64,000 nucleotides of DNA from an uncultured Alphaproteobacteria bacterium (GCA_963730645.1 CAVSSN010000012.1:242853-306852); one strand, 5' to 3'. Positions 10,683-40,394 are shown, counted from the stretch's first letter. Notes: generated by a model from the letters alone, not told the origin. Made by a program: numbers and translations.

Positions 10683-10710
10683 CGTTCGCTCCCTGAAATC
10701 CGTTGCATCG

Positions 10711-11029
10711 TCACGCTGGACGCACTTGCTCTTTTGCTATTTCGCCGCCAGCCGGCTTCACGTTCGGCCCGAAGTCGGTGCCGAGGTAGTCCGCCATCAA
10801 CTTGACCTCGTCCGGCGTCCACAAACCGCCGCGGCCGATCATGCGATAGATCGTGGCTTCCCAGCCGCGCCGTTCCTGGCGGTGATCGCGGAACATCGCG
10901 TCGGTGTGGCACTGGAAACATTTGCCCATCACCAGCGCGCGGCCCGGAAGCTCCGGTTGCTGCGCCGATGCCGGCGCGGCCAGCGCCAAGCGGCGCACAG
11001 GCCAGCAGAATTTTTGGCCAGATCGTCAT
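10711..11029 (-). pseudogene. small periplasmic monohaem cytochrome c; frame interrupted as assembled
   Basis: ATG at 11029 sits behind GGGGAG and starts MTIWPKILLA.... The mature part ...LALAAPASAQQPELPGRALVMGKCFQCHTDAMFRDH... (CxxCH) lies in ORF 10711..10998. Length 319 = 3n+1, with the shift near 11000. Confidence 0.7.
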
Positions 11030-11215
11030 TGCATCTCCCCCGTTTGGCGTGCGTCGCGCGCGTCGTGCGCTCACGGCCGGATCGATTGAACGGCATGGTA
11101 GTCCAACGCCCGCCTAGGCGCCAGACGAGCGAGCGACTTCGCAGCCGCGCGAAGCGTGCTAACATTGACGAAAATAGGCGAAGATCTGAAGACACGAAAC
11201 AGGAGGAGGCACCCG

Positions 11216-12217
11216 ATGGCCAAGATCGTGCTCGGGCTCGGATCATCCCACACGCCGATGCTGCTCGCGTCCGACGAGACGCTGCCGCTCTTTCTCGAGA
11301 CCGATCAGAAGATCAAGCACCGCGACAAGGAGGGCCGGCCCGCCACCTACGCCGAGCTTCTGGAAAAGGCCGACCCGAAGATGGCCGATATGGTGGCGCC
11401 GGCGCAGCTCGCCGCACGGCAGAACAAGGCGCGCGACGCGACTGCGCGTCTGGGCAAAACGCTCAACAGCGCCAAGACTCGATGCGCTCATCGTTTTGAG
11501 TGACGACCAGGACGAAGCCTATCTGGAAGACGCCCGGCCGACCTTTGCGATCTATTACGGCGATACGATCATCAACAGCAACGAGCAGCACGAGCAATAC
11601 CACCAGCGCTTCCCGGAATGGTACGTGAAGAACCGGCAGGCCTTTTTCGAGGACAACAAGCCGCGCGCCTATCCGGTCGACAGCAAGCTTGCCGTTCATC
11701 TCATCGATTGGCTGATGGACAACGGCTTCGACCCGGCGTCCTCGAAGCGCATGCGCGAGGGCGAAGGCGAAGGCCACGGCATGGCCTATGTGCACCGCCG
11801 CCTGATGGAGGGGAAAAACCCGATCCCCATCGTGCCGGTGTTCCTCAACACCTATTTTGCGCCGAACCAGCCGCGGCCGAAGCGCTGCTATGAATTCGGC
11901 CAAGGCCATCCGCAAAGCGGTCGAGAGCTACGCCGGCGATGCGCGCGTCGGCATCATCGCGTCGGGCGGCTTGAGTCACTTTCTGGTGGACGAGGATTTC
12001 GACCGCGCGATTTTGAAAGCGTGCGCCGACAAGGACGCGACATTTCTGCAGAACCTGCCGCGCAACAAGCTCAATGCCGGCAGCTCGGAAATCCTCAACT
12101 GGGTCGGCATCGCCGGCGCGCTGCGAGCATCTCGACCTGAACTGGTTCGAATACGTGCCCGGCTATCGCACGCCGGCCGGTACCGGTACCGGATTGAGCT
12201 TCGCAAGCTGGGCGTAA
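11216..12217 (+). pseudogene. class III extradiol ring-cleavage dioxygenase (LigB family); three frame interruptions as assembled
   Basis: MAKIVLGLGSSHTPMLL... (ORF 11156..11503), then LDALIVLSDDQDEAYLEDARPTFAIYYGD...GHGMAYVH... (ORF 11496..12140), then [34 protein letters not shown]... (ORF 11857..12234), then EHLDLNWFEYVPGYRTPAGTGTGLSFASWA stop. Frames step 2>0>1>2, with +1 shifts near 11477, 11900 and 12124. Confidence 0.8.
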
Positions 12218-12414
12218 ACATCACGAAATTTTGATCCGATTCATCGCCGGAATTTTCGTTCGGGGCAATTGTGTTTTAGTCCCGGCGAGCCGGCGCAATT
12301 TAGAGTGATTGGCGGCGGCCAATGGCGATTCCTACCTGTGCGTGGCTGGTCACATGTCGTGACCGGGGAGGTCGAATATTGATCTCTTCAAATGCCATTC
12401 GACAGGAGTGTCTC

Positions 12415-12633
12415 ATGCTTCGCTATTCGACGATTATCGCTGCGCTCATTCTTGCCGGCAGCGCCGTTACGGCGTCCGCGGCGTCAAAGACCGCGCACCA
12501 CCGCTATCACGGGCTCTACATGCAAGCGCCCACGCCCGGCCCGACGTACAATCGCGCGCCGCAGTACTACGCGCCGAATATGCAGGACGACTCCATGACG
12601 GATCACGCCAAAGGTTCCGTCAAGGACGACTGA
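12415..12633 (+). CDS. small secreted hypothetical protein (72 aa)
   Basis: AGGAG lies 8 nt upstream of the ATG. Signal peptide MLRYSTIIAALILAGSAVTASA. Followed by a hairpin terminator. Confidence 0.6.
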   Translation: MLRYSTIIAALILAGSAVTASAASKTAHHRYHGLYMQAPTPGPTYNRAPQYYAPNMQDDSMTDHAKGSVKDD

Positions 12634-12654
12634 TCGCATTCAGGTTTCCGGCAG

Positions 12655-12694
12655 ACAAACGGGTCCCGGTCACGATCGGGGCCCGTTTGTTGCG
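12655..12694 (+). terminator. putative intrinsic terminator
   Basis: ACAAACGGGTCCC-N10-GGGGCCCGTTTGT stem (1 mismatch) followed by TGTTG. Confidence 0.5.
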
Positions 12695-12728
12695 ATGTGT
12701 CGCCGGACGATGTTACCGCGTTGGCCCG

Positions 12729-13613
12729 TTACGGCGCGAAGCCGTAAAGCCGCGCCGGGTTGTCGACCAGAATGCGCTGTCGCGTCGCCGCGTCCGGCGT
12801 CCAGTCATGGAACAGCTCGTAGAGATGCCCGACATCCGGCATCTCGGCTTCCATGCGCGGATGCGGCCAGTCGCCGCCCCAGACCAGACGCTCCGGATTC
12901 TCCGCGACCAGCGCCTGATGGAACGCGCGCACTTCGGGATAATCCGGCGCGTTGTCGCTCAATCGGTGCGCGCCCGAGACCTTGACCCAGCAGCCGCCCT
13001 GGCCGAGCAGGCGCAGCATGCTCTGGAAACCCGCCGTGCCGATGCCGGCGCGCGCGTCGGTGCGGCCCATGTGGTCGATCATGATGGGCAGGCCGATCGA
13101 TTGCACGATCGGGATCGTCTCCGGCAAATCCTTGACGTCGATCCAGAGCTGCAGGTGCCAGCCGAGTTCTTTCATGGCCGGCGCATGCACGCGCGCGGCT
13201 TCGAGCGGAACGCCGCCGCGATAGTGCAATTGTCCGCCGCGGAAGAAATGATTGAAGCGCAGGCCGCGCACGCCGAGCGCATGCCAGCGACGCAATTCCG
13301 CGGCCGGGACATCGGCATCCGCCACCGCAACGCCGCGCAGCCGCGCCGGCGTGCGCGCGAGCGCGTCGAGCATCGCGGAATTGTCGTTGCCGTGGGCGCT
13401 GCCCTGCACCAGCACGCCGCGATCGAAGCCGACGGTGTCGAGCATGCGCAGATATTTTTCCAGCGGCGCGTCCGGCGGCGTGTAGCTGCGATCCTCCGCG
13501 TAGGGAAATTTCGACGCCGGGCCGAACACGTGCGCATGCGTGTCGCACGCGTTGCGCGGCGGCGGAAATTTCGGCCGCGTCGGCTCGCGCGGCGGCGGGC
13601 AGCCGGGGATCAT
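12729..13613 (-). CDS. amidohydrolase-2 family protein, LigI (2-pyrone-4,6-dicarboxylate lactonase)-like paralog
   Basis: ORF 12729..13721 trimmed to MIPGCPPPREPTRPKFPPPRNACDTHAHVFGP.... Also ...VQGSAHGNDNSAMLDAL..., ...MIDHMGR... and ...VWGGDWPHP.... Confidence 0.8.
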   Translation of the reverse strand: MIPGCPPPREPTRPKFPPPRNACDTHAHVFGPASKFPYAEDRSYTPPDAPLEKYLRMLDTVGFDRGVLVQGSAHGNDNSAMLDALARTPARLRGVAVADADVPAAELRRWHALGVRGLRFNHFFRGGQLHYRGGVPLEAARVHAPAMKELGWHLQLWIDVKDLPETIPIVQSIGLPIMIDHMGRTDARAGIGTAGFQSMLRLLGQGGCWVKVSGAHRLSDNAPDYPEVRAFHQALVAENPERLVWGGDWPHPRMEAEMPDVGHLYELFHDWTPDAATRQRILVDNPARLYGFAP

Positions 13614-24222: not shown

Positions 24223-24256
24223 GAAAACTGCCGCATTCGCCAACAAGGATTCAGGC

Positions 24257-25064
24257 GTGGCAAAGACCTCATCGGCCGGCAAATTTCCCGATCTGCCGCC
24301 GTCGCTCAAGGCGGAGCGGCAGGGCGACATCGCCGTGCTGCGGCTGGCGCGCGCCGCGAAGCGCAACGCGCTCGACGATACGACCGTCGAGGGCATCGAG
24401 AAGTTCTTCAGCGCGCTGCCGGATCGACGTTCGCGCCGTGGTGCTGCACGGCGAGGGCGAGCATTTCTGCGCCGGGCTCGACCTCAACGAGCTGACCGAG
24501 CGCGACGTTTTCGAGGGCATCGAACATTCGCGCAACTGGCACCGCGCGTTCGACCGCATCCAGTACGGCAAGGTGCCGGTCGTCGCGGTGCTGCACGGCG
24601 CCGTGATTGGCGGCGGGCTCGAGCTTGCGGCCGCGACGCACATCCGCGTCGCCGAGCGCTCGGCGTTCTACGCGCTGCCGGAAGGCAGCCGCGGCATCTA
24701 TATCGGCGGCGGCGGCTCGGTGCGTTTGCCGCCGCTGCTCGGCGTGCCGCGCATGACGGACATGATGCTGACGGGGCGCACGCTCAGCGCCGAGGACGGC
24801 CAGGCGATCGGCCTGACGCATTATCTCGTCGAGCCCGGCGCGGGCTTGGCAAAGGGCATCGAGCTCGCCAAGCGCATCGCCAGCAATGCGCCGTTCACGA
24901 ATTTTGCCGTCATGCACATGCTGCCGCGCATCGCGGCGAGCGACCCTGCCGCCGGATTTTTGACCGAGGCGCTGACCGCTGCCATCGCGCAAGGCGACGA
25001 AGAGGCGAAGGCGCGGCTGAAGGCGTTTCTGGACAAGCGCGCCCCCAAGGTCGCGCGCAGCTAG
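24257..25064 (+). pseudogene. enoyl-CoA hydratase/isomerase (crotonase) family protein; frame interrupted as assembled
   Basis: GTG start behind AAGGA. ...GDIAVLRLARAAKRNALDDTTVEGIEKFFSALP lies in the frame of ORF 24137..26080. IDVRAVVLHGEGEHFCAGLDLNEL...GGGLELAAATHIRVA... lies in ORF 23928..25064. +1 shift near 24421. Confidence 0.85.
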
Positions 25065-25153
25065 GGCGCAAGCTCCTCGCCGAACTCGGTCGGGAATTCC
25101 GGTTAGACTTGGGCGCAGCGTCGCAGAACGCCAATTGTCAGGGAGGCATCTTC

Positions 25154-26080
25154 ATGACCATCAGGACCGCAGCAGCCGCAGCAGCATTGATCACGGTCGC
25201 CGGAATTGTGACGGGCGCGCCCGCGTTTGCGCAGGATCTCGGCCCGCAGTTCATGAAGTTCGGCGACGGCATCTACGCCTATGTCGGAAAGAACTTCAAA
25301 TCCAACACCGGCATCATTCTCACACAGGACGGCGTGGTGCTGATCGACAGCGGGCACGAGCCGACCGACTCGCGCGCGGTGATGGACGCCGTCAAGAAGC
25401 TCACGCCGATGCCGGTGCGCTTCCTCATCGACACCGAGCCGCATCCCGATCATACGACCGGACATTTCCTTTTCTCCCCGCCCGCGACCATCATCGCGGC
25501 GGCCGGCGCCGGCGAGTCGATGCGCAACCGCGAACGCCAGACTCCGGACCGGATTGCAAAGCTCGCCGCCACGTCACCGGAAATGAAAGCCGCGCTGGAA
25601 GGCTACAAATTCATTACGCCGCAGGTCGAATACAGCGACAAGATGACATTGTATGCCGGCGAACGGACCTTAGAGCTGCGGTACATGAAAGGCGTTCACA
25701 GCGAAGCCGACACCGCCATCTGGCTGCCGAAAGAGCGCGTGCTGTTTTCGGCGTCCGCATTCGTGTCCGAGCAGATCAACATCTTCCGTCCGTTCGTCAC
25801 TATTCCCGACATTCTGGCGGCCGGGAAGATGCTGAAGGCCCTGAATCCGGAGCACGTCATTCCGGGCCACGGTCCTCCCACCACGGCAAAGCTGTTTGAC
25901 GACGGCGAAAAATATTATGCGCTGCTCGTCGAGCGGGTTGCCGCCAAGGTAAAAGAGGGCAAGTCGCTCGACGACATCCAGAAAGAAGTAAAAATGCCGG
26001 AGTATGCGAGCTGGGCCAGCCAGGATCGCATGCCGACCAACATCGACGCGGCCTACCGGATGGTCACCGCAAAGAAATAG
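25154..26080 (+). CDS. MBL-fold metallo-hydrolase with signal peptide
   Basis: GGGAGG RBS. MTIRTAAAAAALITVAGIVTGAPAFAQ, ...LIDSGHEP..., ...DTEPHPDHTTGH..., ...IPGHG.... Confidence 0.8.
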   Translation: MTIRTAAAAAALITVAGIVTGAPAFAQDLGPQFMKFGDGIYAYVGKNFKSNTGIILTQDGVVLIDSGHEPTDSRAVMDAVKKLTPMPVRFLIDTEPHPDHTTGHFLFSPPATIIAAAGAGESMRNRERQTPDRIAKLAATSPEMKAALEGYKFITPQVEYSDKMTLYAGERTLELRYMKGVHSEADTAIWLPKERVLFSASAFVSEQINIFRPFVTIPDILAAGKMLKALNPEHVIPGHGPPTTAKLFDDGEKYYALLVERVAAKVKEGKSLDDIQKEVKMPEYASWASQDRMPTNIDAAYRMVTAKK

Positions 26081-26110
26081 CGAAGCGATCGAAGCATCGC
26101 GGCGACCATC

Positions 26111-28006
26111 ATGGCGAACACGCTCCGCGATACGCGATCCGCCCACATCACGCCGCCGCTGCGGCCGGTGCGGCTTGCGGCGCCCGATGTCGTGGTCGAG
26201 CGCAGGCCGGACGGCGCGATCCTGATGCGCTCGCCGCATCCGCTGCCGCCCTACCCCGACACGCTGACCGAGCGGCTTGTCCATTGGGCCAAGGCTGCGC
26301 CGGAGCGGATTTTTCTGGCGCAGCGCGACGCGGCCGGCGGCTGGCGCACGCTGACCTACGCGGCGGCGCTGGCGCAGATGCGCGCCATCGCGGCGGCGCT
26401 GCTGCAACGCGAGCTTTCGGTCGAGCGGCCGATCGCCATTCTCTCCGGCAACGACATCGAGCATGCGCTGTTCGGTCTCGCCGCGATGCATGTCGGCATT
26501 CCCTACGCGCCGATCTCGGTGCCCTACTCGCTGATGTCGCAGGATTTCGGCAAGCTGAAATCGATCATCGCCAGTCTGACGCCCGGTCTCGTCTTCGCGG
26601 CCAACGGCAAGATCTTTTCGCGCGCGATCGATGCCGCGGTGCCGGCTGGAATCGAAATCGTTGTCGCGGCGAATCCGCCGGACAGCCGACCGGCGACACT
26701 GTTCTCGACGCTCGCGGCCACGCAGCCGATCGCCCGCCGTCGATGCCGCGCACGCCAAAGTCGGCCCCGATACGATCGCGAAAATCCTGTTCACCTCGGG
26801 CTCGACCGGCCAGCCGAAGGGCGTCATCAACACCCAGCGCATGCTGTGCTCGAACCAGGCGATGATCCGCTCAAGCCTTGCCTTCATCGCCGACGAGCCG
26901 CCGGTGCTGGTCGACTGGCCGCCGTGGAACCACACCTTCGGCGGCAACCACGATTTCGGCATGGTGCTCGACAATGGCGGCTCGTTCTATATCGACGAGG
27001 GCAAGCCGCTGCCGGGCGCCATCGAGGCCACCGTGCGCAATCTGCGCGACATCGCGCCGACCATCCACCTCAACGTGCCCAAGGGCTTCGAGATGCTGCT
27101 GCCCTATCTGCGCAGCGACGCGGCGTTGCGCGAGACGCTTCTTCAGCCGGCTCAAGGTGCTGTTCTACGCCGGCGCGGGGCTTGCACAGCATGTCAGGGA
27201 CGAATTGCAGGAGCTCGCCATCGCCACGACAGGCGAGCGCATCATCTTTCTGTCGAGTCTCGGTTCGACCGAAACCGCGCCCGCGGCGCTCGCTTGCACC
27301 TGGGAATCCGAGCGCACCGGCAATATCGGGCTGCCGATGCGGGGCGTGGAGCTGAAGCTCGTGCCGGCCGGGGGCAAGTTCGAAGCGCGGCTCAAAGGGC
27401 CGAACATCACGCCCGGCTACTGGCGCGCGCCCGAAGCTCACGGCCGACGCGTTCGACGACGAAGGCTTCTACAAGATCGGCGACGCGCTGAAATTCGACG
27501 ATCCGGACGATCCGGCGAAAGGCCTCATGTTCGACGGCCGCATCGCCGAAGATTTCAAGCTCGCGACCGGCACCTGGGTCAGCGTCGGGCCGTTGCGCGC
27601 GCAATTCATTGCGCATCTGCGCGCCGCTGGTGCGCGACGTCGTGATCGCCGGCCTCGACCGCAATGACGATCACCGCGCTGGTCTTTCCCGATCTCGACG
27701 CCTGCCGCACGCTCGCGGCCGGTCTTGCGGCCGATGCGCCCTTGGCCGCCGTGCTCGGCCATGCCGGCGTGCGCGAGGAGTTCGCGCGGCGGCTCGACAA
27801 CGCTGGCGCGCACGAGCACCGGCAACTCCGAACGCGTGTGCCGCGCCGTCCTGCTCGCCGATCCGCCATCGCTCGACGTCGGCGAAGTCACCGACAAGGG
27901 CTCGATCAACCAGCGCGCGGTGCTGGCGCATCGCGCCGCGCTGGTGGAGAAACTGTATTCAGGCGAGCCGTACGACGCGGCGATCCTCGCAACACCAAAG
28001 AGCTGA
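26111..28006 (+). pseudogene. AMP-dependent acyl-CoA synthetase, feruloyl-CoA-synthetase-like (~629 aa); six frame interruptions as assembled
   Basis: Homology continues through ORFs 26111..27355, 26631..27491 (ILFTSGSTGQPKGV), 26878..27645 (FYAGAGL...GSTET), then [22 protein letters not shown]...[15 protein letters not shown] (own translation), then 27609.., 27664.. and 27725..28006. Frames step 2>0>1>2>0>1>2, with shifts near 26733, 27140, 27436, 27622, 27669 and 27802. Confidence 0.8.
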
Positions 28007-28009
28007 CGC

Positions 28010-28772
28010 ATGGATATCAAGGGACACGCCGCGATCGTCACCGGGGGAGCGTCCGGGCTTGGCGCCGCCACGGCCGGAAATGCTGGCCGGCGCGGGCGCG
28101 AAGGTCGCCGTCTTCGACGTCAATCTCGATGGCGCGCGCGCGACGGCGCAGAAGATCGGCGGCGTCGCCGTGCGCTGCGATGTCACCGACGGCGACGGCA
28201 CCGCAGCCGCGGTCGCCGAGGCGCGCGGCAAGCATGGCGCGGCGCGAATTCTCATCAACTGCGCCGGCATCGGGCCGGCAAAGCGCATCGTCGGCCGCGA
28301 CGGGCCGATGCCGCTCGCCGATTTCGAGCGCGTCATCAAGATCAACCTGATCGGCACCTTCAACGCGCTGCGGCTTGTTGCCGCCGACATGCAGAGCCTC
28401 GCGCCGCTCCAGGACGGCGAGCGCGGCCTCATCGTCTGCACCGCCTCGGTCGCCGCCTATGAAGGCCAGATCGGCCAGGCCGCCTATGCGGCGTCGAAGG
28501 GCGGCGTGGTCGGCCTCATCATGCCGGCGGCGCGCGAATTCGCGCAGTTCGGCATTCGCGTCATGGGCGTCGCCCCCGGCATATTCTCGACGCCGATGCT
28601 CAAGGCGCTGCCGCAGGAGGCGCAAAACAGTCTCGCCGCCGCGGTGCCGTTCCCGAAACTGCTCGGCCAGCCGGAGCAATACGCCGCGCTGGTGCGCCAC
28701 ATGATCGAGAACCGCTATCTCAACGGCGAGGTGATCCGCCTCGACGGCGCGCTGCGCATGGCGCCGCGGTAA
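28010..28772 (+). pseudogene. SDR-family 3-hydroxyacyl-CoA dehydrogenase (type II-like); frame interrupted as assembled
   Basis: MDIKGHAAIVTGGASGLGAATA (ORF 28010..28462), then EMLAGAGAKVAVFDVN...NCAGI...SVAAYEGQIGQAAYAASKGGV... (ORF 27609..28772). +1 shift near 28075. Confidence 0.85.
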
Positions 28773-28780
28773 ATGTCCGC

Positions 28781-29213
28781 ATGCTCACCAACACCCGCAA
28801 TCACCGCATCGAATGGTGCGACTGCGATCCGGCCGGGATCGTGTTCTATCCGCGCTATTTCGAGATGTTCGACACCTCGACGACGCTGCTGATCGAGCGC
28901 GCGCTCGGCATGAGCAAATACGATTACCTCAAGGCCTACGATTTCTTCGGCCATCCGCTGGTCGAGACCCGCGCGCGCTTCCTGGTTCCGACGCGGTTCG
29001 GCGACGCCGGTGACGATCGAGAGCACGCTCAGCGAAACCGGCCGGTCGAGCTTCAAGATCGTCCATCGCCTGATGAAAGGCGCAGCGCTGGCGGTCGAGG
29101 GCTTCGAGACCCGCGTCTGGGTCGCGCGCCATCCCGACGATCCTGCGCGCATGAAGGCCCGCCCGATCCCGCCGGAGGTTCTGGCGCGGTTTGGTGCGAC
29201 GGAAAGCGCCTAG
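28781..29213 (+). pseudogene. 4HBT/YbgC-type acyl-CoA thioesterase; frame interrupted as assembled
   Basis: MLTNTRNHRIEWCDCDPAGIVFYPRYFEMFD...VPTRFGD (ORF 28781..29518), then VTIESTLSETGRSSFKIVHRL... (ORF 29010..29213). +1 shift near 29010. Confidence 0.8.
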
Positions 29214-29267
29214 TAGCCACATTTGCCGGATGTGCTAGAAGCCACCCCATAAACCAGGAGAAGAACC

Positions 29268-30410: not shown

Positions 30411-30830
30411 ATGCGTACGTTTTTGGCTGCAGTACTGGTTGCCGCCTGGTTCGGCCCGGCGAACGCCGCCTGTCGTTGTCAATGCATCGACGGCAAAGCC
30501 GAGGCCAAGTGCACCTCGAGAAGCGAGACGCCCCCCGCCTGCGCGGCCAACGTTTGTGCGGCCAATACGCCAGCCGCTGTCGCGCCGCGGCAGTTTCAGG
30601 TGCCGTACGCGCCGGCCGAAATCACGACGACCGTCCCGCCCTCGACGACCACTCCGGAATCGCAGTCGCCCGCGCCCTATCCGCCGAGCCCGCTTCCACC
30701 TCGGGCGCGAACCGATTCACAGGCCGATATTGTGCCCGCGCCAACCACGCGCGCGCTCACCGCCGTCGCCACAGCCGCTTCCGCAGTCGACCAATCGGCC
30801 AGATATCCCCATTACCCAGCCGCCCAATAG
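30411..30830 (+). CDS. small secreted Cys-rich / Pro-Thr-rich hypothetical protein (first gene of the low-GC islet)
   Basis: GAGGG RBS. Signal peptide MRTFLAAVLVAAWFGPANA, then ACRCQCIDGKAEAKCTSRSETPPACAANVCAAN and a Pro-rich region. A +1 frame continues to 30906 and encodes ...PITQPPNSKSLCYERQVFNPNTFEYEWQQSCD, so the true 3' end may be 30906. Confidence 0.55.
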   Translation: MRTFLAAVLVAAWFGPANAACRCQCIDGKAEAKCTSRSETPPACAANVCAANTPAAVAPRQFQVPYAPAEITTTVPPSTTTPESQSPAPYPPSPLPPRARTDSQADIVPAPTTRALTAVATAASAVDQSARYPHYPAAQ

Positions 30831-31162
30831 CAAGTCGCTATGCTATGAACGCCAAGTATTCAATCCAAATACATTCGAATATGAGTGGCAGCAGTCCTGC
30901 GACTAGCCAAATTGTCCCATTTTGGGATGTTGTATACTGTTGTGGCCGCAATGTGTTGCTGTGCCGACACACTTATGGTTAATCCTGCCCATCCCCTTGT
31001 ACCACAACGCCGTATGGTTAACCCTTGTGGTTAACGCTCGTTAAGGACTGCTTACTTGGCGAGCGTGAGTGTGGTGGGTACATCAGAGCAGTTGCGTGAA
31101 AACGTAAACTCTCCGAAACGTTGCCGCCGCGCTCGTGTGAAATTCACCGGGCGGGGGAAATC

Positions 31163-31511
31163 ATGTCCAGGTTTCGAATTGCGCTTTACACGGCGGTGCT
31201 GGTGGCATCTGCCGCTCTGAATGCGACTGCCCAAGCGACCGACGCGGCTCATGCTTGGGGAACCATCAGCAGCCCAGGTGAGGTTTTGCGTCAACTCTGC
31301 GGTAACGCATCTGCAGGGCAGCGAAGCTGCGCAAATCGTGTCGCAGGGCTCGGGCTCCGGGACGACGACGACGAGTGGATTCCCGGCGGTCACATCGTGC
31401 GGCACCTGCACCACAATCACCATCCAGGGCGATCAGAATTCCATCTCGGGAACCAGCATCACAAGCTCCAACCAGGGCGTGGTGACCTCAAACGGCTTCT
31501 TCAATCAGTAA
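31163..31511 (+). pseudogene. small secreted curlin/HfaA-like repeat protein; frame interrupted as assembled
   Basis: GGGGGA RBS. Signal peptide MSRFRIALYTAVLVASAALNATAQA (frame of ORF 31121..31534), then ...SAAQVRFCVNSAVTHLQGSEAAQIVSQGSGSGTTTTSGFPAVTSCGTCTTITIQGDQNSISGTSITSSNQGVVTSNGFFNQ (ORF 31221..31511). +1 shift near 31255. Lies directly upstream of the CsgG/HfaB-like gene. Confidence 0.6.
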
Positions 31512-31568
31512 GAGCGCGATCGCTGTCGATATAGTTTGCGTTCGGGCGTTGCGTATCAGAGGTAAGAA

Positions 31569-32426
31569 ATGAAGCGTCAGATCACTGTTGTGTTGCTCGC
31601 ATCCGTCGTGCTCGGTGGCTGCAGCTTCGGCTGGTGGGACTCCTACAACGGCGTCACGAAAGCGATCCCGCCGCGCGCCAGCGCACCGTCTTCGAACATT
31701 GTTGCGGCGCTGTCCTGCATCAAGGATTCAGGTGCGTTGCGCAATACCAAGATCGCGGTTGCGATCCATGCCGACGGCACCGGCAAATACAATCACATCG
31801 CGGACGGCGCGACCGGCAATTATCTGCCGCAAGGGACCACCGCGACCTACGCGTCCGACGCGGTGCTGATGGCCGGCGCCAGGGCCTACAACTACTACGA
31901 ACTGAATACCGAACGGGCGATGCGTGCGTTCGCCGGCGCCGACGAGCAAAAGGTGCTGTCGGACAAGCAGGATGCGACGCTGCCGAACTACATTCTCTCG
32001 ACCTCGTTCACGGCGCTCGATTTCATCGGCGGCCCCGACATCGACGTGCAGATCGCCGGGATCGGGCCGTACTGGACCGGCCGCGGCGCGTCGGTCGAGG
32101 CGGTCGCGGAAATCTACCAGCCGGGCAACCGCGCGATCCTCAAGATGAGCTCGATCCAGCGCTACGTCGCATTCCGCCAGGGCGGCGTCACCGTCAACAA
32201 GTTTTTCGGCGGCGGCAGCGGAACGTTGGTGACCGGCGGCGCCTTGTATTCCGACCAGCAGCGGCTGCAGGAGGCGACGCGGGACGTCGTGGCGCTGTCG
32301 GTCGCCGACGTGCTGTCGCGCTTCCACCGTATCCCGACGGACTGCCGCGCCATGGTCGAGGCGTTGCTCGCCGGCGCGCAGCCCGACGTGGCGGTGCCGC
32401 AAACTTATGTGCAAACCAGAGGCTGA
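31569..32426 (+). CDS. CsgG/HfaB-family outer-membrane lipoprotein (curli-type secretion channel family)
   Basis: Lipobox VVLGGC at residues 13-18. By-eye alignment to E. coli CsgG: TKIAVAIHADGTGKY...YLPQGTTATYASDAVLMAG versus GKIFVSVYNIQDETGQF...AVPQSATAMLVTAL, and ILSTSFTALDF...AGIGPYWTGRGASVEAVAEIYQPGNRAILKMSSIQRYV versus IMVEGSIIGYES...FGIGADTQYQLDQIAVNLRVVNVSTGEILSSVNTSKTI. Confidence 0.75.
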   Translation: MKRQITVVLLASVVLGGCSFGWWDSYNGVTKAIPPRASAPSSNIVAALSCIKDSGALRNTKIAVAIHADGTGKYNHIADGATGNYLPQGTTATYASDAVLMAGARAYNYYELNTERAMRAFAGADEQKVLSDKQDATLPNYILSTSFTALDFIGGPDIDVQIAGIGPYWTGRGASVEAVAEIYQPGNRAILKMSSIQRYVAFRQGGVTVNKFFGGGSGTLVTGGALYSDQQRLQEATRDVVALSVADVLSRFHRIPTDCRAMVEALLAGAQPDVAVPQTYVQTRG

Positions 32427-32478
32427 CGCCAGAAACGGGAAGCTGCCCCTGAAATTTCGCCGGCGCTGTGCCGGCATA

Positions 32479-32509
32479 TAAAAAAGGCCGGGCGCGAGCC
32501 CGGCCTTTT
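32479..32509. terminator. bidirectional intrinsic terminator between convergent csgG-like and ialB-like genes
   Basis: AAAAAAGGCCGGGC-GCGA-GCCCGGCCTTTT: a perfect stem flanked by an A-run and a T-run. Confidence 0.85.
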
Positions 32510-32538
32510 GCATTCGTGATTGGCTTGGAGCCCGGCTG

Positions 32539-33250
32539 TTACGACCGTACGGCAGCGACGGCCTTGTCGATGCCCGCGAGCGGGAATTTGAAATGGACGT
32601 CGCGACCGTCCTTGGCATGGATGGTGATGACCATCGTGGACGCCGCCTCGATCTTCTTCATCGACGGCTCTTCCAGGGCACCGGTCGCCTCGCAATTCTG
32701 CGGAACACAGGCGGCATAGTCGAGCTTGCCGACCGGCGCATCGCCAATCATGAGGTCGACGCCCTTCTGCACCATCACGCCGGTTGGCGTCTGCATGATC
32801 GCATGGATCTTGCCGTCCTTGGCGCGCGCAATCTCCCACAGGATTACGAGCTGCTGCTCGTTGTTCGTGATCCGCAGCGCGGCGGAGCAGGTCTTCTGGG
32901 AATCGGCGCCGACCACTTCATGGCAGGTGACGGTCCAGCGGTCATAGACCGTGGTTTCGATCCGCATCGGCGCAGCGTCGGCTGGTTGCTCTGCAACCTG
33001 CTGCTTCTTCGGCGTCAGGCTTCGCCTTGCCGCGTTGAACGACGTGCTTGGTCGTCGCCTTGCGGGCCTGCTGTTGCTGCTGCCACACCGGCCGGAAGCC
33101 GTCGTCGGGCGCTGCCGCCGCGGAATCCTCGAGGTATTCGGCGCCGTCGTCGACCTTCTGCGCTCTCGCGTCGTGCGCAAACAGAAACAGGGCGGCAAGT
33201 GCAACGGCACCAAACAGGCTGGTCGTCCCGAAGCAAGAGCGAGATGTCAT
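32539..33250 (-). pseudogene. invasion-associated locus B (IalB)-family periplasmic protein; frame interrupted as assembled
   Basis: Signal peptide MTSRSCFGTTSLFGAVALAALFLFAHDARA... (ORF 32942..33307), then ...KKQQVAEQPADAAPMRIETTVYDRWTVTCHEVVGADSQKTCSAALRI...CVPQNCEA... (ORF 32539..33213). +1 shift near 33010. Confidence 0.75.
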
Positions 33251-33392
33251 GTGGAGTGGCCTTTCGTTTTGGGATTTCGCTTCACATTGTAGCAAGAACT
33301 TCGCCATTTTTCCGCGCAGGCGAATAAATATGCGCGATTTCGGTTAATGCAGCCGGTCGTATCAGCTCAATACAACCGGAACGCAAACGACT

Positions 33393-33420
33393 TCGACGGC
33401 GGGCTTTCGCCCGCCGTCGA
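33393..33420 (-). terminator. putative terminator hairpin downstream of the 446-aa repeat protein gene
   Basis: TCGACGGCGGGC-TTTC-GCCCGCCGTCGA, a perfect 12-bp stem. Confidence 0.55.
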
Positions 33421-33464
33421 GAACCATTCGTGCAGACTCGGCTGCGACAGCCGAAGTCCCGGCA

Positions 33465-34802
33465 TTAGTTGTGCACGTTGTTGATGTGCTGCGTGATCGT
33501 CGCGCCAGCCAGCGAACCGATCGCCTGCGCGGTGATCGAGTTGCCGACGCCGCTGGTGATGCTGGTGGTGCTTGTGGGCTGACCCATGATGTTGAGGGTC
33601 GCAGTCACCGGCGCATTGTTTCCATTGGTCGAGGTGATGTTCTTGGCAATGGTCACGGTATTGGACGGCATCGTCGAGACGTTCATCGCTCCAGAGGTGC
33701 CGAACGAGGCGGTCTGGTTGATGCTCGCCAGGGCGCTGGCGCCGATAGCCGACGCCGTGATGCTGTTGGCTACGCCGCCCGAGATCGTCGTCGTGTTGAC
33801 GTTGGCACCCTTGCCAAGCTCAGTGTCGGCCGTAACTTTGCCGGTGTTGTGGGCCACCACCTGGTTGGCGCTGACCTTGTTGGACCGACCGCCAGTGGCT
33901 ACCCGTGGTCACGTTCAAGAACTGAGAGGAGATCGACGCGCCAGCGGACGCGCCAACCGCCTGCGAGCCGATCGTGTTCTCAACGCCGCACCAATGGCAG
34001 CGCTGAGACCCGACGACCCGACGATGGTCTGGGTCGCGGCGATATTGGCGGTGTTCCGGGCGGTGATGTTGTTGACTTTGACCGTGTTGTCCGGAAGCTG
34101 CGTCGGGTTGAAGGCCGACGAATTCGAGACAGACTGCGTGATGCTGGCAGACGCAGTGGCGCCGATGGCCGTAGCAGTGATGCTGTTGCTCACGCCGTCC
34201 GAGATCGCCGCCGAAGCCGTGATCTTGTCAGCGCCAGCGCCATTGGCCGTCACCGCTGCAGTGTTCTTGGCAAAAAGATTCTTGTCGACCGTGACCTTGT
34301 TGTCACCGCCGGCAGTGTTGTTGCCCGTCACGACATTTTCGAAACGCGAGGAAATGCCGGCCGCCGCGGATGCGCCAATCGCCGTCGAGGTGATTGAATT
34401 GGCAATTCCGTTAGCGATGCTCGCGCCCACCGAAGTGAAGTGCGAGTCGACCGTGGCGGTGTTTCGTCCGGTAACCGAGCCATTCACGTGCACGGTGTTG
34501 TCCGGAATCTGACTCAGATCGAGACCCGGCGCCCCGGCGTTGGAGACGGACTGATCGATGCTGGCAACGCCCGATGCGCCGATGCCGGTGGCGCCGATCG
34601 TCGAAGACACGGTGTTGACGCCGCTGATCAAGGCCTGACCAGGAACAGTGATAGACGCATTGACCTTGCTGTGGTTGACCGCAGTCACGCCCGTATTGCC
34701 CTGAACTTTGATGACGTTCTGTGCCAGCGCCGGGCTGACGAGGAACGTCGTTCCGAGCAGGAGTGAAGTGTAGACAGCTTTCTTCGCGATAGAGTAACGC
34801 AT
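33465..34802 (-). pseudogene. secreted 446-aa protein built of six ~70-aa Ser/Thr/Asn/Gly/Ala-rich repeats (beta-solenoid-like); compensating -1/+1 pair as assembled
   Basis: Signal peptide MRYSIAKKAVYTSLLLGTTFLVSPALA. The recurring block is N(T/K)V-V...NT...I-x-x-GV-x-NSIT-x-x-AIGA-x-A-x-ASI-x-Q. ORFs 33915..34802 and 33465..33860 share one frame. The about 85 nt between 33988 and 33900 read as GVENTIGSQAVGASAGASISSQFLNVTTG only in another frame. Confidence 0.7.
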
Positions 34803-34900
34803 TACTTAACGCTCCCGTGCTCCGACGCCAGCCACCGGCATCATTGGGTTAATAGTTTGTTGGCCTCTGTGGCGATGTGCAGAAAATCGAAGCGAAAAAG

Positions 34901-34916
34901 TTAAGTCAATCTTAAG
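34901..34916. promoter_or_regulatory. TTAA-N7-TTAA site (CtrA-box-like) in the divergent promoter region
   Basis: TTAAgtcaatcTTAAg. The alphaproteobacterial CtrA consensus is TTAA-N7-TTAAC. Confidence 0.3.
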
Positions 34917-34938
34917 TTCCCCTTACGGTTGCTTAACC

Positions 34939-34953
34939 TTAAGTTATGGTTAA
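34939..34953. promoter_or_regulatory. second TTAA-N7-TTAA site (CtrA-box-like)
   Basis: TTAAgttatggTTAA. It contains one of three TATGGTTAA 9-mers found in the islet's intergenic DNA. Confidence 0.3.
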
Positions 34954-35136
34954 TACGGAACAATTAAACAGATTTGCAGTGCGCTTTTTCTGCGACGTTG
35001 CTTTGTGAATTCTTTCTCGCGCCACCACCTCGATTAACGATGTCTTTACTTTCGAATTGCTCACGCACTGCATTTGAAATCATTGTCGTGGCCCGCCGTG
35101 CTCGCTCCCGATGCCGGCGCCTGAAAGGATCACATC

Positions 35137-35585
35137 GTGAATCAGTTTGCGATTGCGCTCGCCTTGGCCACAGCATGTGCAGTCACTCCCGCTTTCGCGG
35201 ATTCGATCACTGCAAGCAGCACGACCGGCGGCAGCACCGTCGCTGGCACCACGGTGACTTCATCCAACGCCGGCAGTGTGACCGCGACTGGCAATTTCGG
35301 GCACACAGCGATCCGCGGCGGCAAGCAACAACTTCATCGGTGTGACCTCGACCGGCGCCGCCGTCACCGTTCAAATTCTCGAAAGACGGCGTCGATCCGA
35401 ATGTCCCGACCAGCGATTCGATCGCCGTTTCGTCGATCAACACGTCGAACACGGGCACCGTCACCGCGACCGGAAGATTCCAGGGCGCGATCGCCAGCAG
35501 CAACGCGCAAAGCTCGTCCAGCGGCAACAGCATCGGCGTTTCGGCTGCCGGCACATCGGTCAACATCACGATCTCGCACAAATAG
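35137..35585 (+). pseudogene. small secreted Ser/Thr/Gly/Asn-rich two-repeat protein (~148 aa); two frame interruptions as assembled
   Basis: GTG start behind AAAGGA. MNQFAIALALATACAVTPAFADSITASSTTGGSTVAGTTVTSSNAGSVTATGNFGHTAIRG (ORF 35137..35682), then ASNNFIGVTSTGAAVTVQ (ORF 35342..35617 frame), then FSKDGVDPNVPTSDSIAVSSINTSNTGTVTATGRFQGAIASSNAQSSSSGNSIGVSAAGTSVNITISHK stop (own translation). +1 shifts near 35320 and 35374. Confidence 0.65.
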
Positions 35586-36707: not shown

Positions 36708-36751
36708 CGAATCGACCCTTTCCTGCGCGTTTTTTGCTAGCGTGCCCCGCC

Positions 36752-39503
36752 ATGGATGCCGCGCGCCCCATCATGTCCGACGATTCCGGCCCGCCGGTCG
36801 AGGCCGGCCGCGTCACCCCCAAAGCGGCCGACGACGTCGGCCGCGTAACCCCGATGATGGAGCAATATATCGAGATCAAGGCCGCCAATCCGGATTGCCT
36901 GCTGTTCTACCGGATGGGCGACTTCTACGAAATGTTCTTCGACGACGCCGAAATCGCCTCGCGCGCACTCGGCATCATGCTGACCAAGCGCGGCAAGCAC
37001 ATGGGCCGCGACATTCCGATGTGCGGCGTGCCGGTCGAGCGCGCCGACGAATATCTGCATCAGCTCATCGCGCTCGGCCATCGCGTCGCCGTGTGCGAGC
37101 AGCTTGAAGACCCGGCCGAGGCGCGCAAGCGCGGCAACAAGAGCGTGGTGCGCCGCGACGTGGTGCGGCTGGTGACGCCCGGCACGCTGACCGAGGATTC
37201 GCTGCTCGACGCGCGGCGCAACAATTTTCTCCTCGCCATCGCGCGGGCGCGCACCTCCTCGACCGACGACGACAGCCGCTTCGCGCTCGCCTGGATCGAC
37301 ATTTCCACGGCCGAATTCCGCCTGCTCGAGTGCGACCGCAGCGCGCTCGCCGCCGAGATCGCGCGGCTCGAGCCCGGCGAAATCATCGTCTCCGACGCGC
37401 TCTATTCGGATGCCGAGCTTGCGCCGTACTTCCGCTCGCTGCCAGCCGTGACGCCGCTCGCGCGCGACGTGTTCGACGGCGCGACGGCCGAGCGGCGGCT
37501 CGCGTCGTTCTTCGGCGTCGCCACCACCGCGGCGTTCGGCGCGCTGTCGCGCGTCGAGCTGACTGCGGCAGCCGCGATCATCACCTATGTGGAGCGCACG
37601 CAGATCGGCAAGCGGCCGCCGCTGTCGCCGCCGCTGCGCGAGGCCGCCGGCGCGACGCTCGCGATCGACCAGGCGACGCGCGCCAATCTCGAACTGATCC
37701 GCACGCTCGCGGGCGAGCGGCGCGGCTCGCTGCTGGCCGCCATCGACCGCACCGTGACGTCGGCCGGCTCGCGGCTGCTGGCGCAGCGGCTCGCCGCGCC
37801 GCTCACCGATCCGCAGGAGATCGCGCGCCGGCTCGACGCCGTCGCGGTGTTCGCGAGCGACAGCGGCTTGCGCGCCGAAATGCGCGAGCGGCTCAAGGCG
37901 GCGCCCGATCTCGCCCGCGCGCTGGCGCGGCTTGTCGTCGGCCGCGGCGGGCCGCGCGATCTCGCCGGCGTCCGCGACGGCATCACGGCCGCGGCCGAGC
38001 TTGCGACACGGCTCGCGGCGCTTGCGATCGTGCCGGACGAGATCGCGCAGGCGGCGACCGCATTGCGGCGGCCCGATCCTGCCATCGCGGCCGAGCTTGC
38101 CGGCGCACTCGCCGACGAACTGCCGGCGTTCAAGCGCGACGGCGGCTTCGTGCGCGCGGGCTGCGAGGGCGCGCTCGACGAGGCGCGCGCGCTGCGCGAC
38201 GAATCGCGCCGCGTCATCGCCGCGCTGCAGGTGCGCTACGCCGAGACGACCGGCATCCGCTCGCTGAAGATCCGGCACAACAACGTGCTCGGCTATTTCG
38301 TCGACGTCACGGCGCAGCACGGCGAGAAGCTGCTCACTGCGCCGCTCAACGCCAGCTTCATCCATCGCCAGACGCTCGCCGGCCAGGTGCGCTTCACCAC
38401 GACGGAGCTCGGCGAGCTTGAGGCCAAGATCGCCAATGCGGCCGACCGCGCGCTCGGGCTGGAACTCGAAATCTTCGAGCGCCTCGCCGCAACCGTCACG
38501 GCCGCGAGCGCAGAGATCAAGGCGGCAGCCGAAGCGCTTGCCGTGATCGATGTCGCCTCCGCGCTGGCCACACTCGCGATCGAGCGCGATTATGTGCGGC
38601 CGGAGGTCGATGCCGGTCTCGACTTCGTCATCGAGGGCGGCCGTCATCCGGTGGTCGAACCGGCGCTCGCGCACGACGGCGGCCCGTTCGTCGCCAACGA
38701 TTGCGATCTCTGCGGCGGCCGGCCGCATCTGGCTGATGACCGGCCCCAACATGGCGGGCAAGTCGACGTTCCTGCGGCAGAACGCGCTCATCGCCGTGCT
38801 GGCGCAGATGGGCAGTTTCGTGCCGGCGCGCCGCGCGCATATCGGCGTGGTCGACCGGCTGTTCTCGCGCGTCGGCGCCGCCGACGATCTCGCGCGCGGC
38901 CGCTCGACCTTCATGGTCGAGATGGTCGAGACCGCCGCCATCCTCAATCAGGCCGGCGAGCGCGCGCTCGTCATCCTCGACGAGATCGGGCGCGGCACTG
39001 CGACCTTCGACGGCCTCTCGATCGCCTGGGCGACGATCGAGCATCTGCACGAACGCAACCGCTGCCGCGCGCTGTTCGCCACGCATTTCCACGAGATGAC
39101 CGCGCTCGCCGCCAAGCTGCCGCGGCTCCACAACGCGACGATGCGCGTCAAGGAATGGCAGGGCGAGGTCGTGTTCCTGCACGAGGTCGTGCCGGGCGCG
39201 GCCGACCGCTCCTACGGCATCCAGGTGGCGAAGCTCGCCGGCCTGCCGGCGAGCGTGATCGAACGCGCCAAGGTGGTGCTGGCGCAGCTCGAAGCCGAGG
39301 ACCGCACTTCGCCGGCGCGCCGGCTGATCGACGACCTGCCGCTGTTTTCCGCGCGCGCGGCGCCCGCACCGCAACGCGACGCCGCGCTCACCGCGCTGGT
39401 CGAGGCGCTCGCGGCGCTGCATCCCGACGAGATGTCGCCGCGCGATGCGCTGGAAGCGCTTTATGCGCTCAAGACGAAACTGGCGCAGGTGAAGAAAGAA
39501 TAG
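36752..39503 (+). pseudogene. mutS: DNA mismatch repair protein MutS; frame interrupted just upstream of the Walker A motif as assembled
   Basis: ...[34 protein letters not shown]... through ...GGRHPVVE...FVANDCDL lies in ORF 36734..39811. ..[27 protein letters not shown]...[16 protein letters not shown]... lies in ORF 38550..39503. Length is 3n+1, with the shift near 38711. Confidence 0.92.
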
Positions 39504-39505
39504 AT

Positions 39506-39573
39506 GTAGCCCGCATGAGCGTAGCGATATGCGGGACCGCCGCCCCGGATATCGCTCCGCTCATCCGGGCTAC
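39506..39573. repeat. REP-like long hairpin, family C (GTAGCCCGCATGAGCGnAGCGATATGCGGGAC...CCGGATnTCGCTCCGCTCATCCGGGCTAC)
   Basis: Begins 3 nt after the mutS stop. A second copy lies at 62215. Confidence 0.85.
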
Positions 39574-39593
39574 GAAGAAGACGGCTACGAAAC

Positions 39594-40394
39594 CTACGAC
39601 AAAATTTTGCGGGCGCGAAATACCCACAGCACACCGTTCCAGGCGATGCAGACCGAAAGGCCGATCGCGAGGCCCCACCACGAGCCGAGCGGTTCGGCCA
39701 GATAGTGCAGCGCCAGGAAGCCGAGGCACAGTCCGACAAAAGCGATTTGCGCATGCGCCAGTACGCTGGCGGATGCCTTGCCGCCGATGCGCGGATGCAA
39801 AATCACGATGAAGCTGCCGAGCACGATCGGAAATACCGCAAACATGCCCGATGCAAACGAGCCGATGCGGTAGCTCGCCGTCGTCACGACGGCGACCAGA
39901 ACCGCGGCCGTAATGGCGCGCAGCGGGATATCGAATGGCGTCCGCGCCACTTTCGGCGGCGTTCCGGACGTGCGGTAGCTCCAGCTCAGCGGGATCGTGA
40001 AGGCAAAAGTCGCAATCACGAGCGCCATCGCGGTCAGCGGCGTCCAATCGACGAAGCGCAGCGCGGCGGCGATCGCAAACCACAGCACGGTCGCGACGCT
40101 CAGACTCAGCAGCAACCCGTGCCGCTGCGCCAGAATGGCGTAGCTCAGCGCAAAGACCGACACCGCGGCGTTGGTGGCGAGGCTGCCGATCGCGCTCGCG
40201 GCGATGAAGCTCGGCGGATGCTCCATGGCGAGGATGATGTAGGCCGCGCCCGCCGCCGTCGGCAGCGCGGCGATCAGCGCGCCGATGAACGGCCCGCTGC
40301 GCTCGACCGCAACCGAGGCGATGACGACGATCGCCGCCGTCATCGCCATCTTGAGCGCGAGCTCGAACCAGAACAGGAGTTCGGGGGAGATCAT
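39594..40394 (-). CDS. hypothetical polytopic membrane protein (~266 aa)
   Basis: Part of ORF 39594..41138, trimmed to [30 protein letters not shown].... About 8 hydrophobic segments. No family recognised. Confidence 0.6.

Follow-up and report, generated by a model that had tools for sequence, protein, structure and literature searches.

A divergent CsgG/HfaB-superfamily lipoprotein and its paralogous secreted repeat proteins: a candidate curli- or holdfast-anchor-like module in an uncultured Alphaproteobacteria bacterium

Introduction

CsgG-type channels let unfolded proteins through the outer membrane with no obvious source of energy, and CsgG itself, the channel of the curli system, is a nonameric pore of 36 strands. 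The experimental work on CsgG-type channels that we found in the literature concerns curli and the holdfast anchor (Hfa) system, i.e. few studied examples. In the Hfa system of Caulobacter, HfaA and HfaD form multimers resistant to sodium dodecyl sulphate (SDS) and depend on HfaB for their surface localisation, and HfaE is a secreted Cys-rich anchor protein (PMC6707917; bioRxiv 10.1101/2022.07.20.500906). Here, we describe a block of six genes at positions 30,411 to 35,585 of a 64,000-nucleotide stretch of DNA, referred to as the window, from an uncultured Alphaproteobacteria bacterium (GCA_963730645.1 CAVSSN010000012.1:242853-306852). A previous sequence-only reading of the window had proposed that this block encodes a lipoprotein of the CsgG/HfaB family together with a distinct family of secreted repeat proteins. 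All six genes are found at the positions given by that reading (listing of open reading frames and direct reading), and its core claim is supported by a chain of sequence profiles, by Foldseek and by synteny. No description of this module was found in the literature.

Results

The 285-amino-acid (aa) lipoprotein, whose lipobox LGG/C is visible by direct reading, is the representative in the window of a family of 99 clusters at 90% identity, all of which are named 'hypothetical' and none of which carries a Pfam domain. The assignment of this protein to the CsgG/HfaB family did not stand as a direct model match, and stood as membership of the superfamily. The protein has no match to Pfam CsgG (PF03783) even at E<=1, and neither has, at E<=5, its ortholog in L001, an intact syntenic metagenome locus whose lipoprotein is 91% identical to that of the window and which served as our reference for frame correction; both proteins are also without a match to the NCBIfam models of CsgG (NF011731) and HfaB (NF037935). 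The lipoprotein family profile (A1) has no match among the PDB sequences and gives an hhalign probability of 1.5% against a single E. coli CsgG sequence. Despite these failures, the remote homology that places the lipoprotein in the CsgG superfamily is solid, because the profile chain, the typing of the distant relatives and the Foldseek results point to it. An exhaustive hmmsearch with A1 retrieved 131 representatives at E<=1e-3 among 1.84 billion proteins, and 59 of the 84 distant full-length matches score on Pfam CsgG and 63 on the NCBIfam HfaB model (NF037935, best E 8.6e-69), whereas only nine score on the CsgG equivalog model. The alignment of A1 with these distant relatives reaches an hhalign probability of 100% (E 2.6e-50 over 259 columns), and the profile of the distant relatives matches the solved E. 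coli CsgG structures over almost the full length (E 7e-20). A1 also aligns with P0099, an HfaB-like member of Pfam CsgG (hhalign probability 98%, E 1e-13). No cluster member was found to bear the name HfaB. The nearest branch of the lipoprotein is therefore HfaB-like (63 of 84 against nine of 84) and not that of the curli CsgG to which it had been aligned by eye; within the CsgG superfamily, it forms a divergent sister to the HfaB-like branch and is missed by the current curated models.

The AlphaFold model of the lipoprotein monomer (predicted local distance difference test score, pLDDT, 77.8; predicted template modelling score, pTM, 0.71) contains long predicted hairpins at residues 141-184 and 189-228, and these two hairpins align with the transmembrane regions TM1 and TM2 of CsgG. 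A Foldseek search of the PDB with this model returned CsgG as 13 of the 13 best matches (E to 2.7e-9, TM-scores 0.49/0.55), with HpaA, PelC, LptE and FlgT ranking below CsgG (E 1e-6 to 1e-3). The D-x-T-G-(Q/K) and P-Q motifs of the lipoprotein align with CsgG through intermediate relatives, and a family-invariant G80-x-T82-G83 lies at the position of the CsgG constriction loop. All members of the lipoprotein family and the 84 HfaB-like distant relatives have a pair of cysteines, C50/C259, that is absent from E. coli CsgG; it probably forms a disulfide between the N-terminal and C-terminal helices and is a marker of this branch.

Three families of secreted proteins accompany the lipoprotein, i.e. 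a small protein, a two-repeat protein and a large repeat protein. By direct reading, all three carry Sec signal peptides with AXA-type sites, as had been noted earlier, and are rich in S/T/N/G/A, and two of the three are without Cys. None of the three families, intact L001 orthologs included, has a Pfam or NCBIfam match. The small family is recognised by the motifs AWGT (after the signal peptide), LLNSAxxH and CGxC and by one repeat unit (I.G..NSI.G..I...N.G.VT..G.F), and a search with its profile gave 84 clusters, none of which has a name or a Pfam domain. Each repeat of the two-repeat protein reads N.G.VTA.G.F ... NSIGVSAAG.SVNI, and the large protein repeats with a period of ~62-80 aa and the consensus gGigNSISAaAVGASASaSisq ... 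N.V.vG...itAtNsG.Vta. Profile comparison indicates that the small and two-repeat families are paralogous (hhalign 96%, E 3.2e-9) and that the repeat unit of the large protein is homologous to the two-repeat family (94%, E 1.1e-7); the direct comparison of the small family with the large-protein unit is not significant (12.9%). The three secreted proteins are thus linked as paralogues, the small to the two-repeat protein and the two-repeat protein to the repeat unit of the large one. The large protein has six repeats in the window (446 aa), ~14 in L001 (1033 aa, 9902-13003) and from 4 to ~15 across lineages. The number of its repeats evolves fast, since six and ~14 repeats are found despite 91%-identical lipoproteins.

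A search for homologs of the large protein gave at least three matches, with numerous low-complexity candidates. The AlphaFold model of the large protein (P0100, built from five sequences only) is all-beta, with a pLDDT of 74.9 and a pTM of 0.74. Pfam scans found no autotransporter, RTX or TPS domain in the large protein, and the source names 'trimeric autotransporter adhesin' of a large homolog (P0101) and 'opacity protein-like surface antigen' of a small homolog (P0159) are not supported by domain matches. A Trp motif recurs within ~10 residues of the mature N-terminus, as AWGT in the small proteins, as QVADTW.I in the large proteins of sphingomonads and as DW..(W/Y) in the small proteins of HfaB-like loci; the loci concerned are L009-L025 for the large proteins and L028, L029 and L032-L034 for the small ones. 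This recurrent N-terminal motif may be a targeting signal. The small protein also shares an 'LLNSA' stretch (...GEVLLNSA..., window 31260-31300) with the region of CsgF that lies inside CsgG; in both proteins it lies about equally far from the mature N-terminus, and the hhalign comparison with CsgF is not significant (1.7%).

The association of these proteins with the lipoprotein is conserved. Among the genomes of 185,579 species (one genome per species) the lipoprotein family occupies 23 loci, and its carriers are alphaproteobacterial metagenome-assembled genomes (MAGs), species of Novosphingobium, among them the cultured N. fuchskuhlense, N. huizhouense, N. percolationis and N. cyanobacteriorum, other Sphingomonadales, Methylobacter and one Rhodobacteraceae MAG. 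The L001 proteins served as queries against 25 related loci, of which 20 have usable sequence beside the lipoprotein. The large repeat protein (~300-1160 aa) adjoins the lipoprotein in 20 of 20, and the two-repeat (~150 aa) and small (~115 aa) proteins are present in almost all. The repeat proteins are therefore syntenic with the lipoprotein, as the sequence-only reading supposed, in every informative locus of Alpha- and Gammaproteobacteria. In the window's clade, the small and lipoprotein genes are followed by the IalB and large genes on the opposite strand and then by the two-repeat gene; the Sphingomonadales have lipoprotein, large, two-repeat and small genes on a single strand; Methylobacter has two small genes, the lipoprotein gene, two genes of mid-size repeat proteins and the two-repeat gene; and the Rhodobacteraceae MAG has lipoprotein, large, two-repeat-like and small genes. 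As the orders differ among lineages, co-occurrence of the genes seems to have been selected, rather than their order inherited.

The core of the module is made of four genes, i.e. the lipoprotein and the three paralogous secreted proteins. The IalB and Cys/Pro-rich proteins, which had been listed among the genes of the block, are clade-specific by their distribution over the related loci. The identity of the IalB protein is confirmed (Pfam PF06776, E 8.9e-24, 84.5 bits against a cut-off of 22.1), and its gene is in the module only in L001-L006, i.e. in the window's own clade. The Cys/Pro-rich protein has homologs only in L001, L002, L004 and L005, and neither its window fragments nor the L001 ortholog has a Pfam or NCBIfam match. 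Its C-terminus (30790-30903), ...LCYERQVFNPNTFEYEWQQ(S/A)CD, is loosely like CNERSLLR, a motif reported as conserved in HfaE, a lead without statistical support. Around the module, the loci inspected showed no other conserved outer-membrane exporter and no genes for the synthesis or export of polysaccharides. One of the loci, L003 (DASXQB010000361.1), is a 1.9-kilobase (kb) contig with small, lipoprotein (92% identical) and IalB genes; although assigned to a 'Polyangia bacterium' MAG, it probably comes from an alphaproteobacterium and was mis-binned.

Compared with curli, the module is alike in the fold of its channel, in the sequence-profile chain to the solved CsgG, and in the combination of a lipoprotein channel with paralogous repeat subunits that have different roles or sizes and are rich in G/S/N/Q/A, of which the large one is predicted to be all-beta. 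It differs in that no protein of this module matches Pfam CsgG or Curlin_rpt, in a repeat period of ~70 aa against ~22 aa in curli, in a constriction loop with G(A/S)TG in place of the Y..NF of CsgG, and in a repeat number that varies widely. Pfam and NCBIfam scans of the six genes, as window fragments and as L001 orthologs, gave matches for IalB only, with none in Pfam for curli accessory proteins or Curlin_rpt. The previously noted absence of CsgE and CsgF homologs (Pfam, hhalign) and of a CsgD-type regulator gene (Pfam) beside the module holds. The small protein had been described as curlin- or HfaA-like; this description found no support in Pfam and NCBIfam scans or in hhalign comparisons with the E. 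coli curli proteins and the neighbours of HfaB-like genes.

The likeness to the Hfa system lies in an outer-membrane lipoprotein of the CsgG superfamily that is flanked by small and larger secreted proteins, in the nearest recognisable relatives of this lipoprotein, which score on the HfaB model and share its Cys pair, and in a likely alphaproteobacterial host with promoter motifs of the cell-cycle-regulator type. The hfaA-hfaB-like order of a small gene and a lipoprotein gene is present as claimed, with the small gene 58 nucleotides (nt) upstream. The module differs in that the window lipoprotein itself has no NF037935 match, in the extra large protein with 4-15 repeats and in its presence in Sphingomonadales and Methylobacter. 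Loci of more distant relatives show related layouts. Three-gene units of small, lipoprotein and two-repeat genes are found in L028 and L030, and the distant lipoprotein relatives P0190 (E 1e-53) and P0195 (E 5e-36) lie in such units, in which the small proteins align with the window family (hhalign 95% and 83%) and the two-repeat proteins do so less clearly (71% and 19%). In the HfaB-like, Pfam-positive loci L027, L029, L033 and L034 the order is small, lipoprotein, larger protein, while the contig of L032 ends just after the lipoprotein gene. In the HfaB-like loci, the small proteins share a Trp motif at the N-terminus, a stretch that looks helical and, at the C-terminus, a segment I.I.G..N.V, and N.G.V.AS.. 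motifs stand at either end of the larger proteins.

Motifs resembling the binding sites of the cell-cycle regulator CtrA, for which the full-site and half-site consensus was taken from PMC3692519, are concentrated in the two AT-rich promoter regions of the module. Within the 64 kb, TGGTTAA was found four times, always in these regions (expected 0.58), the exact half-site TTAACCAT three times, again always there (expected 0.17), and TTAA-N7-TTAA twice in the window, both in 34803-35136 (expected 0.01); the shuffle controls use the composition of the whole window, and the AT-richness of the promoter regions inflates the contrast somewhat. L001, L002 and L003 keep the sites of 30907-31162 in position, L001 and L005 keep those of 34803-35136, and CtrA-type sites stand at corresponding positions in L001, L002, L003, L005, L006, L012 and L014. 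This positional conservation is a stronger argument than the excess in counts. Because the boxes lie only in the promoter regions of the module and recur in orthologous loci, they suggest that CtrA controls the module. Nothing usable was found in the literature on CtrA control of hfaA.

The features of the block are listed in Table 1. The L001 locus reads, in order, Amidohydro_2, 164 aa, 115 aa, 288 aa, IalB, 1033 aa, 157 aa, 360 aa and MutS. Compared with L001, the lipoprotein gene of the window is intact, and frameshifts are present in the genes of the Cys/Pro-rich (one), small (one), IalB (one), large (two) and two-repeat (two) proteins; the frame of the Cys/Pro gene switches between 30743 and 30790 (tblastn with the L001 ortholog) and that of the two-repeat gene changes within 35327-35407. 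The flanking ECH, AMP-binding, adh, 4HBT and mutS genes are frameshifted as well (e.g. 24239-29204; mutS 36734-39811), and across the window most genes, housekeeping genes included, show frame changes relative to intact orthologs at roughly one per 0.5-1 kb. P0100, from another assembly that is independent and nearly identical, is an intact large protein of 99% identity that confirms the corrected 446-aa, six-repeat reading, and in that assembly the frameshifted gene is the one for the lipoprotein (P0098), with breaks that differ from those of the window. The indels look like sequence noise across the window from an error-prone assembly, and not decay of the module, because the flanking genes are similarly frameshifted and the assembly of P0100 is broken elsewhere. 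In L001, a methyltransferase gene (4800-5606) separates the gene of the 4HBT thioesterase from that of the amidohydrolase; the window lacks this gene (29205-29267).

Table 1. Features of the module and its immediate surroundings (window coordinates)
Feature	Position	Strand	Remarks
Cys/Pro-rich secreted protein	30411..30906	+	~164 aa after correction of one frameshift; clade-specific neighbour, outside conserved core
AT-rich promoter region 5' of small-protein and lipoprotein genes	30907..31162	.	GC 0.52
TTAACCAT half-sites in region 30907-31162	30975-30982, 31014-31021	-	motif search
Third TGGTTAA in region 30907-31162	31028-31034		motif search
Small secreted protein, ~115 aa	31163..31511	+	one frameshift near 31292 (1-nt insertion)
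Lipoprotein, 285 aa, lipobox LGG/C18	31569..32426	+	divergent CsgG/HfaB-superfamily outer-membrane channel candidate
Bidirectional terminator hairpin between convergent lipoprotein and IalB genes	32479..32509	.	
IalB-family periplasmic protein	32539..33250	-	one frameshift; Pfam PF06776
Perfect 11-base-pair hairpin downstream of large repeat gene	33393..33420	-	without T-run
Large secreted repeat protein, 446 aa, six ~70-aa repeats	33465..34802	-	two frameshifts, near 33985 and 33905
AT-rich divergent promoter region	34803..35136	.	GC 0.48
TTAA-N7-TTAA sites	34901-34915, 34939-34953		second contains TTAACCAT; motif search
Two-repeat secreted protein, ~148 aa	35137..35584	+	two frameshifts

The block had been described as a low-GC islet with AT-rich intergenic DNA and two terminators of its own. 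The intergenic DNA is indeed AT-rich (GC fractions of 0.52 and 0.48 in the two promoter regions against 0.653 for the window). The islet as such is weakly true, with a GC fraction of 0.606 for the whole block and a host-like composition of the lipoprotein gene (GC 0.65; GC at third codon positions, GC3, 0.857), and the source of the dip is the intergenic DNA together with coding sequence rich in S/T/N. A horizontally acquired low-GC island was rejected as the main cause of the composition, given the host-like GC3 and the same chromosomal context in L001. Of the two terminators, the one at 32479-32509 is upheld, as a GC-rich hairpin (GGCCGGGCGCGAGCCCGGCC between A/T runs) with T-runs on both strands and a minus-strand call by the terminator scan, whereas the perfect hairpin at 33393-33420 lacks a T-run and received no call.

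Discussion

The results allow us to propose, with a probability of about 0.6, that the locus encodes a type-VIII-like (curli/holdfast-anchor-like) module, in which unfolded repeat proteins would be exported via a CsgG/HfaB-type pore and then assembled on the cell surface. From its homology and fold, the lipoprotein would carry its lipid on Cys18 and be targeted to the outer membrane, where it would oligomerise into a CsgG/HfaB-type ring, the two long beta-hairpins of each subunit forming the transmembrane barrel and the invariant loop HADGTGK...G(A/S)TG..LPQGT standing in place of the CsgG constriction loop. The three Sec-exported proteins, whose synteny and paralogy are described above, would be the substrates of this channel and would probably cross the pore unfolded. 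By analogy with CsgB/CsgF-CsgA and HfaA/HfaD, the large protein may then fold outside the cell into an elongated all-beta repeat structure, for which the one-repeat (~115 aa) and two-repeat (~150 aa) proteins may serve as an envelope-proximal anchor or template. On this view, the repeat proteins may form a fibre. The motifs suggest that in alphaproteobacterial hosts transcription would probably be driven by CtrA, and the IalB and Cys/Pro-rich proteins may be clade-specific accessories.

Several observations weigh against this proposal. Neither the lipoprotein nor its family profile directly matches a CsgG or HfaB model or CsgG in the PDB, and the constriction residues of CsgG, Y51, N55 and F56, are not kept in the lipoprotein family, where the aligned residues are I77, A81 and T82. 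The three substrate families give hhalign probabilities of <2% against E. coli CsgA, CsgB, CsgE and CsgF and of <=1.3% against the neighbours of HfaB-like genes, which stood as proxies for HfaA and HfaD in place of the Caulobacter sequences. The Foldseek search with the large-protein model gave no significant match, the weak beta-solenoid hits having E>0.4 with curli CsgA on top (E 0.48), and the CxxC pair of the small protein is a poorer fit to unfolded export.

The main rival is a role as a holdfast-type anchor, in which the exported proteins would tether a polar polysaccharide adhesin to the envelope, as HfaA, HfaD and HfaE do in Caulobacterales, and no free fibre would be made. It has in its favour that HfaB-like proteins are the nearest recognisable relatives of the lipoprotein (63 of 84 on NF037935 against nine on the CsgG equivalog) and share with it the C50/C259 pair that E. 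coli CsgG lacks, that the order of small, lipoprotein and larger-protein genes mirrors hfaA-hfaB-hfaD (PMC6707917), that the CtrA-type boxes suggest cell-cycle or polar-development control, and that the Cys-rich secreted neighbour recalls HfaE. We nevertheless consider this role unlikely: the lipoprotein has no HfaB-model match at all, no homology was detected between the substrates and the proteins encoded next to HfaB-like genes, the loci inspected showed no genes for making or exporting polysaccharides around the module, the large protein with its 4-15 repeats is without a described Hfa counterpart, and the module is also carried by Methylobacter, a gammaproteobacterium. It is very unlikely, in our estimate, that the lipoprotein is a periplasmic or outer-membrane scaffold of the PelC, LptE, HpaA and FlgT fold and no translocon, with repeat proteins that stay in the periplasm or are exported otherwise. 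Those lipoproteins share its core alpha/beta fold and are also returned by Foldseek (E 1e-6 to 1e-3), the constriction residues of CsgG are not conserved, and no energy component or CsgE-like chaperone was found. However, they rank below CsgG, whose chains top the Foldseek list, they are without the two long hairpins that are predicted here at the positions of the CsgG transmembrane hairpins, and the sequence-profile chain reaches CsgG/HfaB and not PelC or LptE; moreover, the repeat proteins have Sec signals only, and the neighbourhood holds no further conserved exporter of the outer membrane.

A reading of the block as a decaying, non-functional remnant, which seven frame changes over ~5 kb in five of its six genes might invite, is scarcely credible, as frameshifts are about as frequent in the flanking housekeeping genes, mutS among them, the other assembly has the large protein intact at 99% identity (P0100) and the lipoprotein broken instead (P0098), and L001, the close ortholog locus, has all its genes intact. 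Pseudogenisation was rejected on the ground that the indels are window-wide. Returning to the export module, a more specific form of it, which we advance tentatively and at somewhat less than even odds, is that it may represent a third class of type-VIII-like system, in which a divergent HfaB/CsgG-type channel with its own paralogous subunits of one, two and 4-15 repeats would build a CtrA-timed surface fibre or adhesin, the repeat number tuning the length of the large subunit.

The module is probably, as judged from sequence and predicted structure, an undescribed variant of the machinery that builds surface fibres or anchors. Its four protein families, the lipoprotein and the three secreted ones, are still unannotated or 'hypothetical', and the curated hidden Markov models overlook a whole branch of the CsgG superfamily. 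Since its pore loop differs, CsgE and CsgF are missing and its substrates reach ~1,100 aa, the module would constitute a natural experiment on how substrates are recognised and passed by such a pore. It is present in cultured Novosphingobium species, so that the hypothesis is experimentally approachable.

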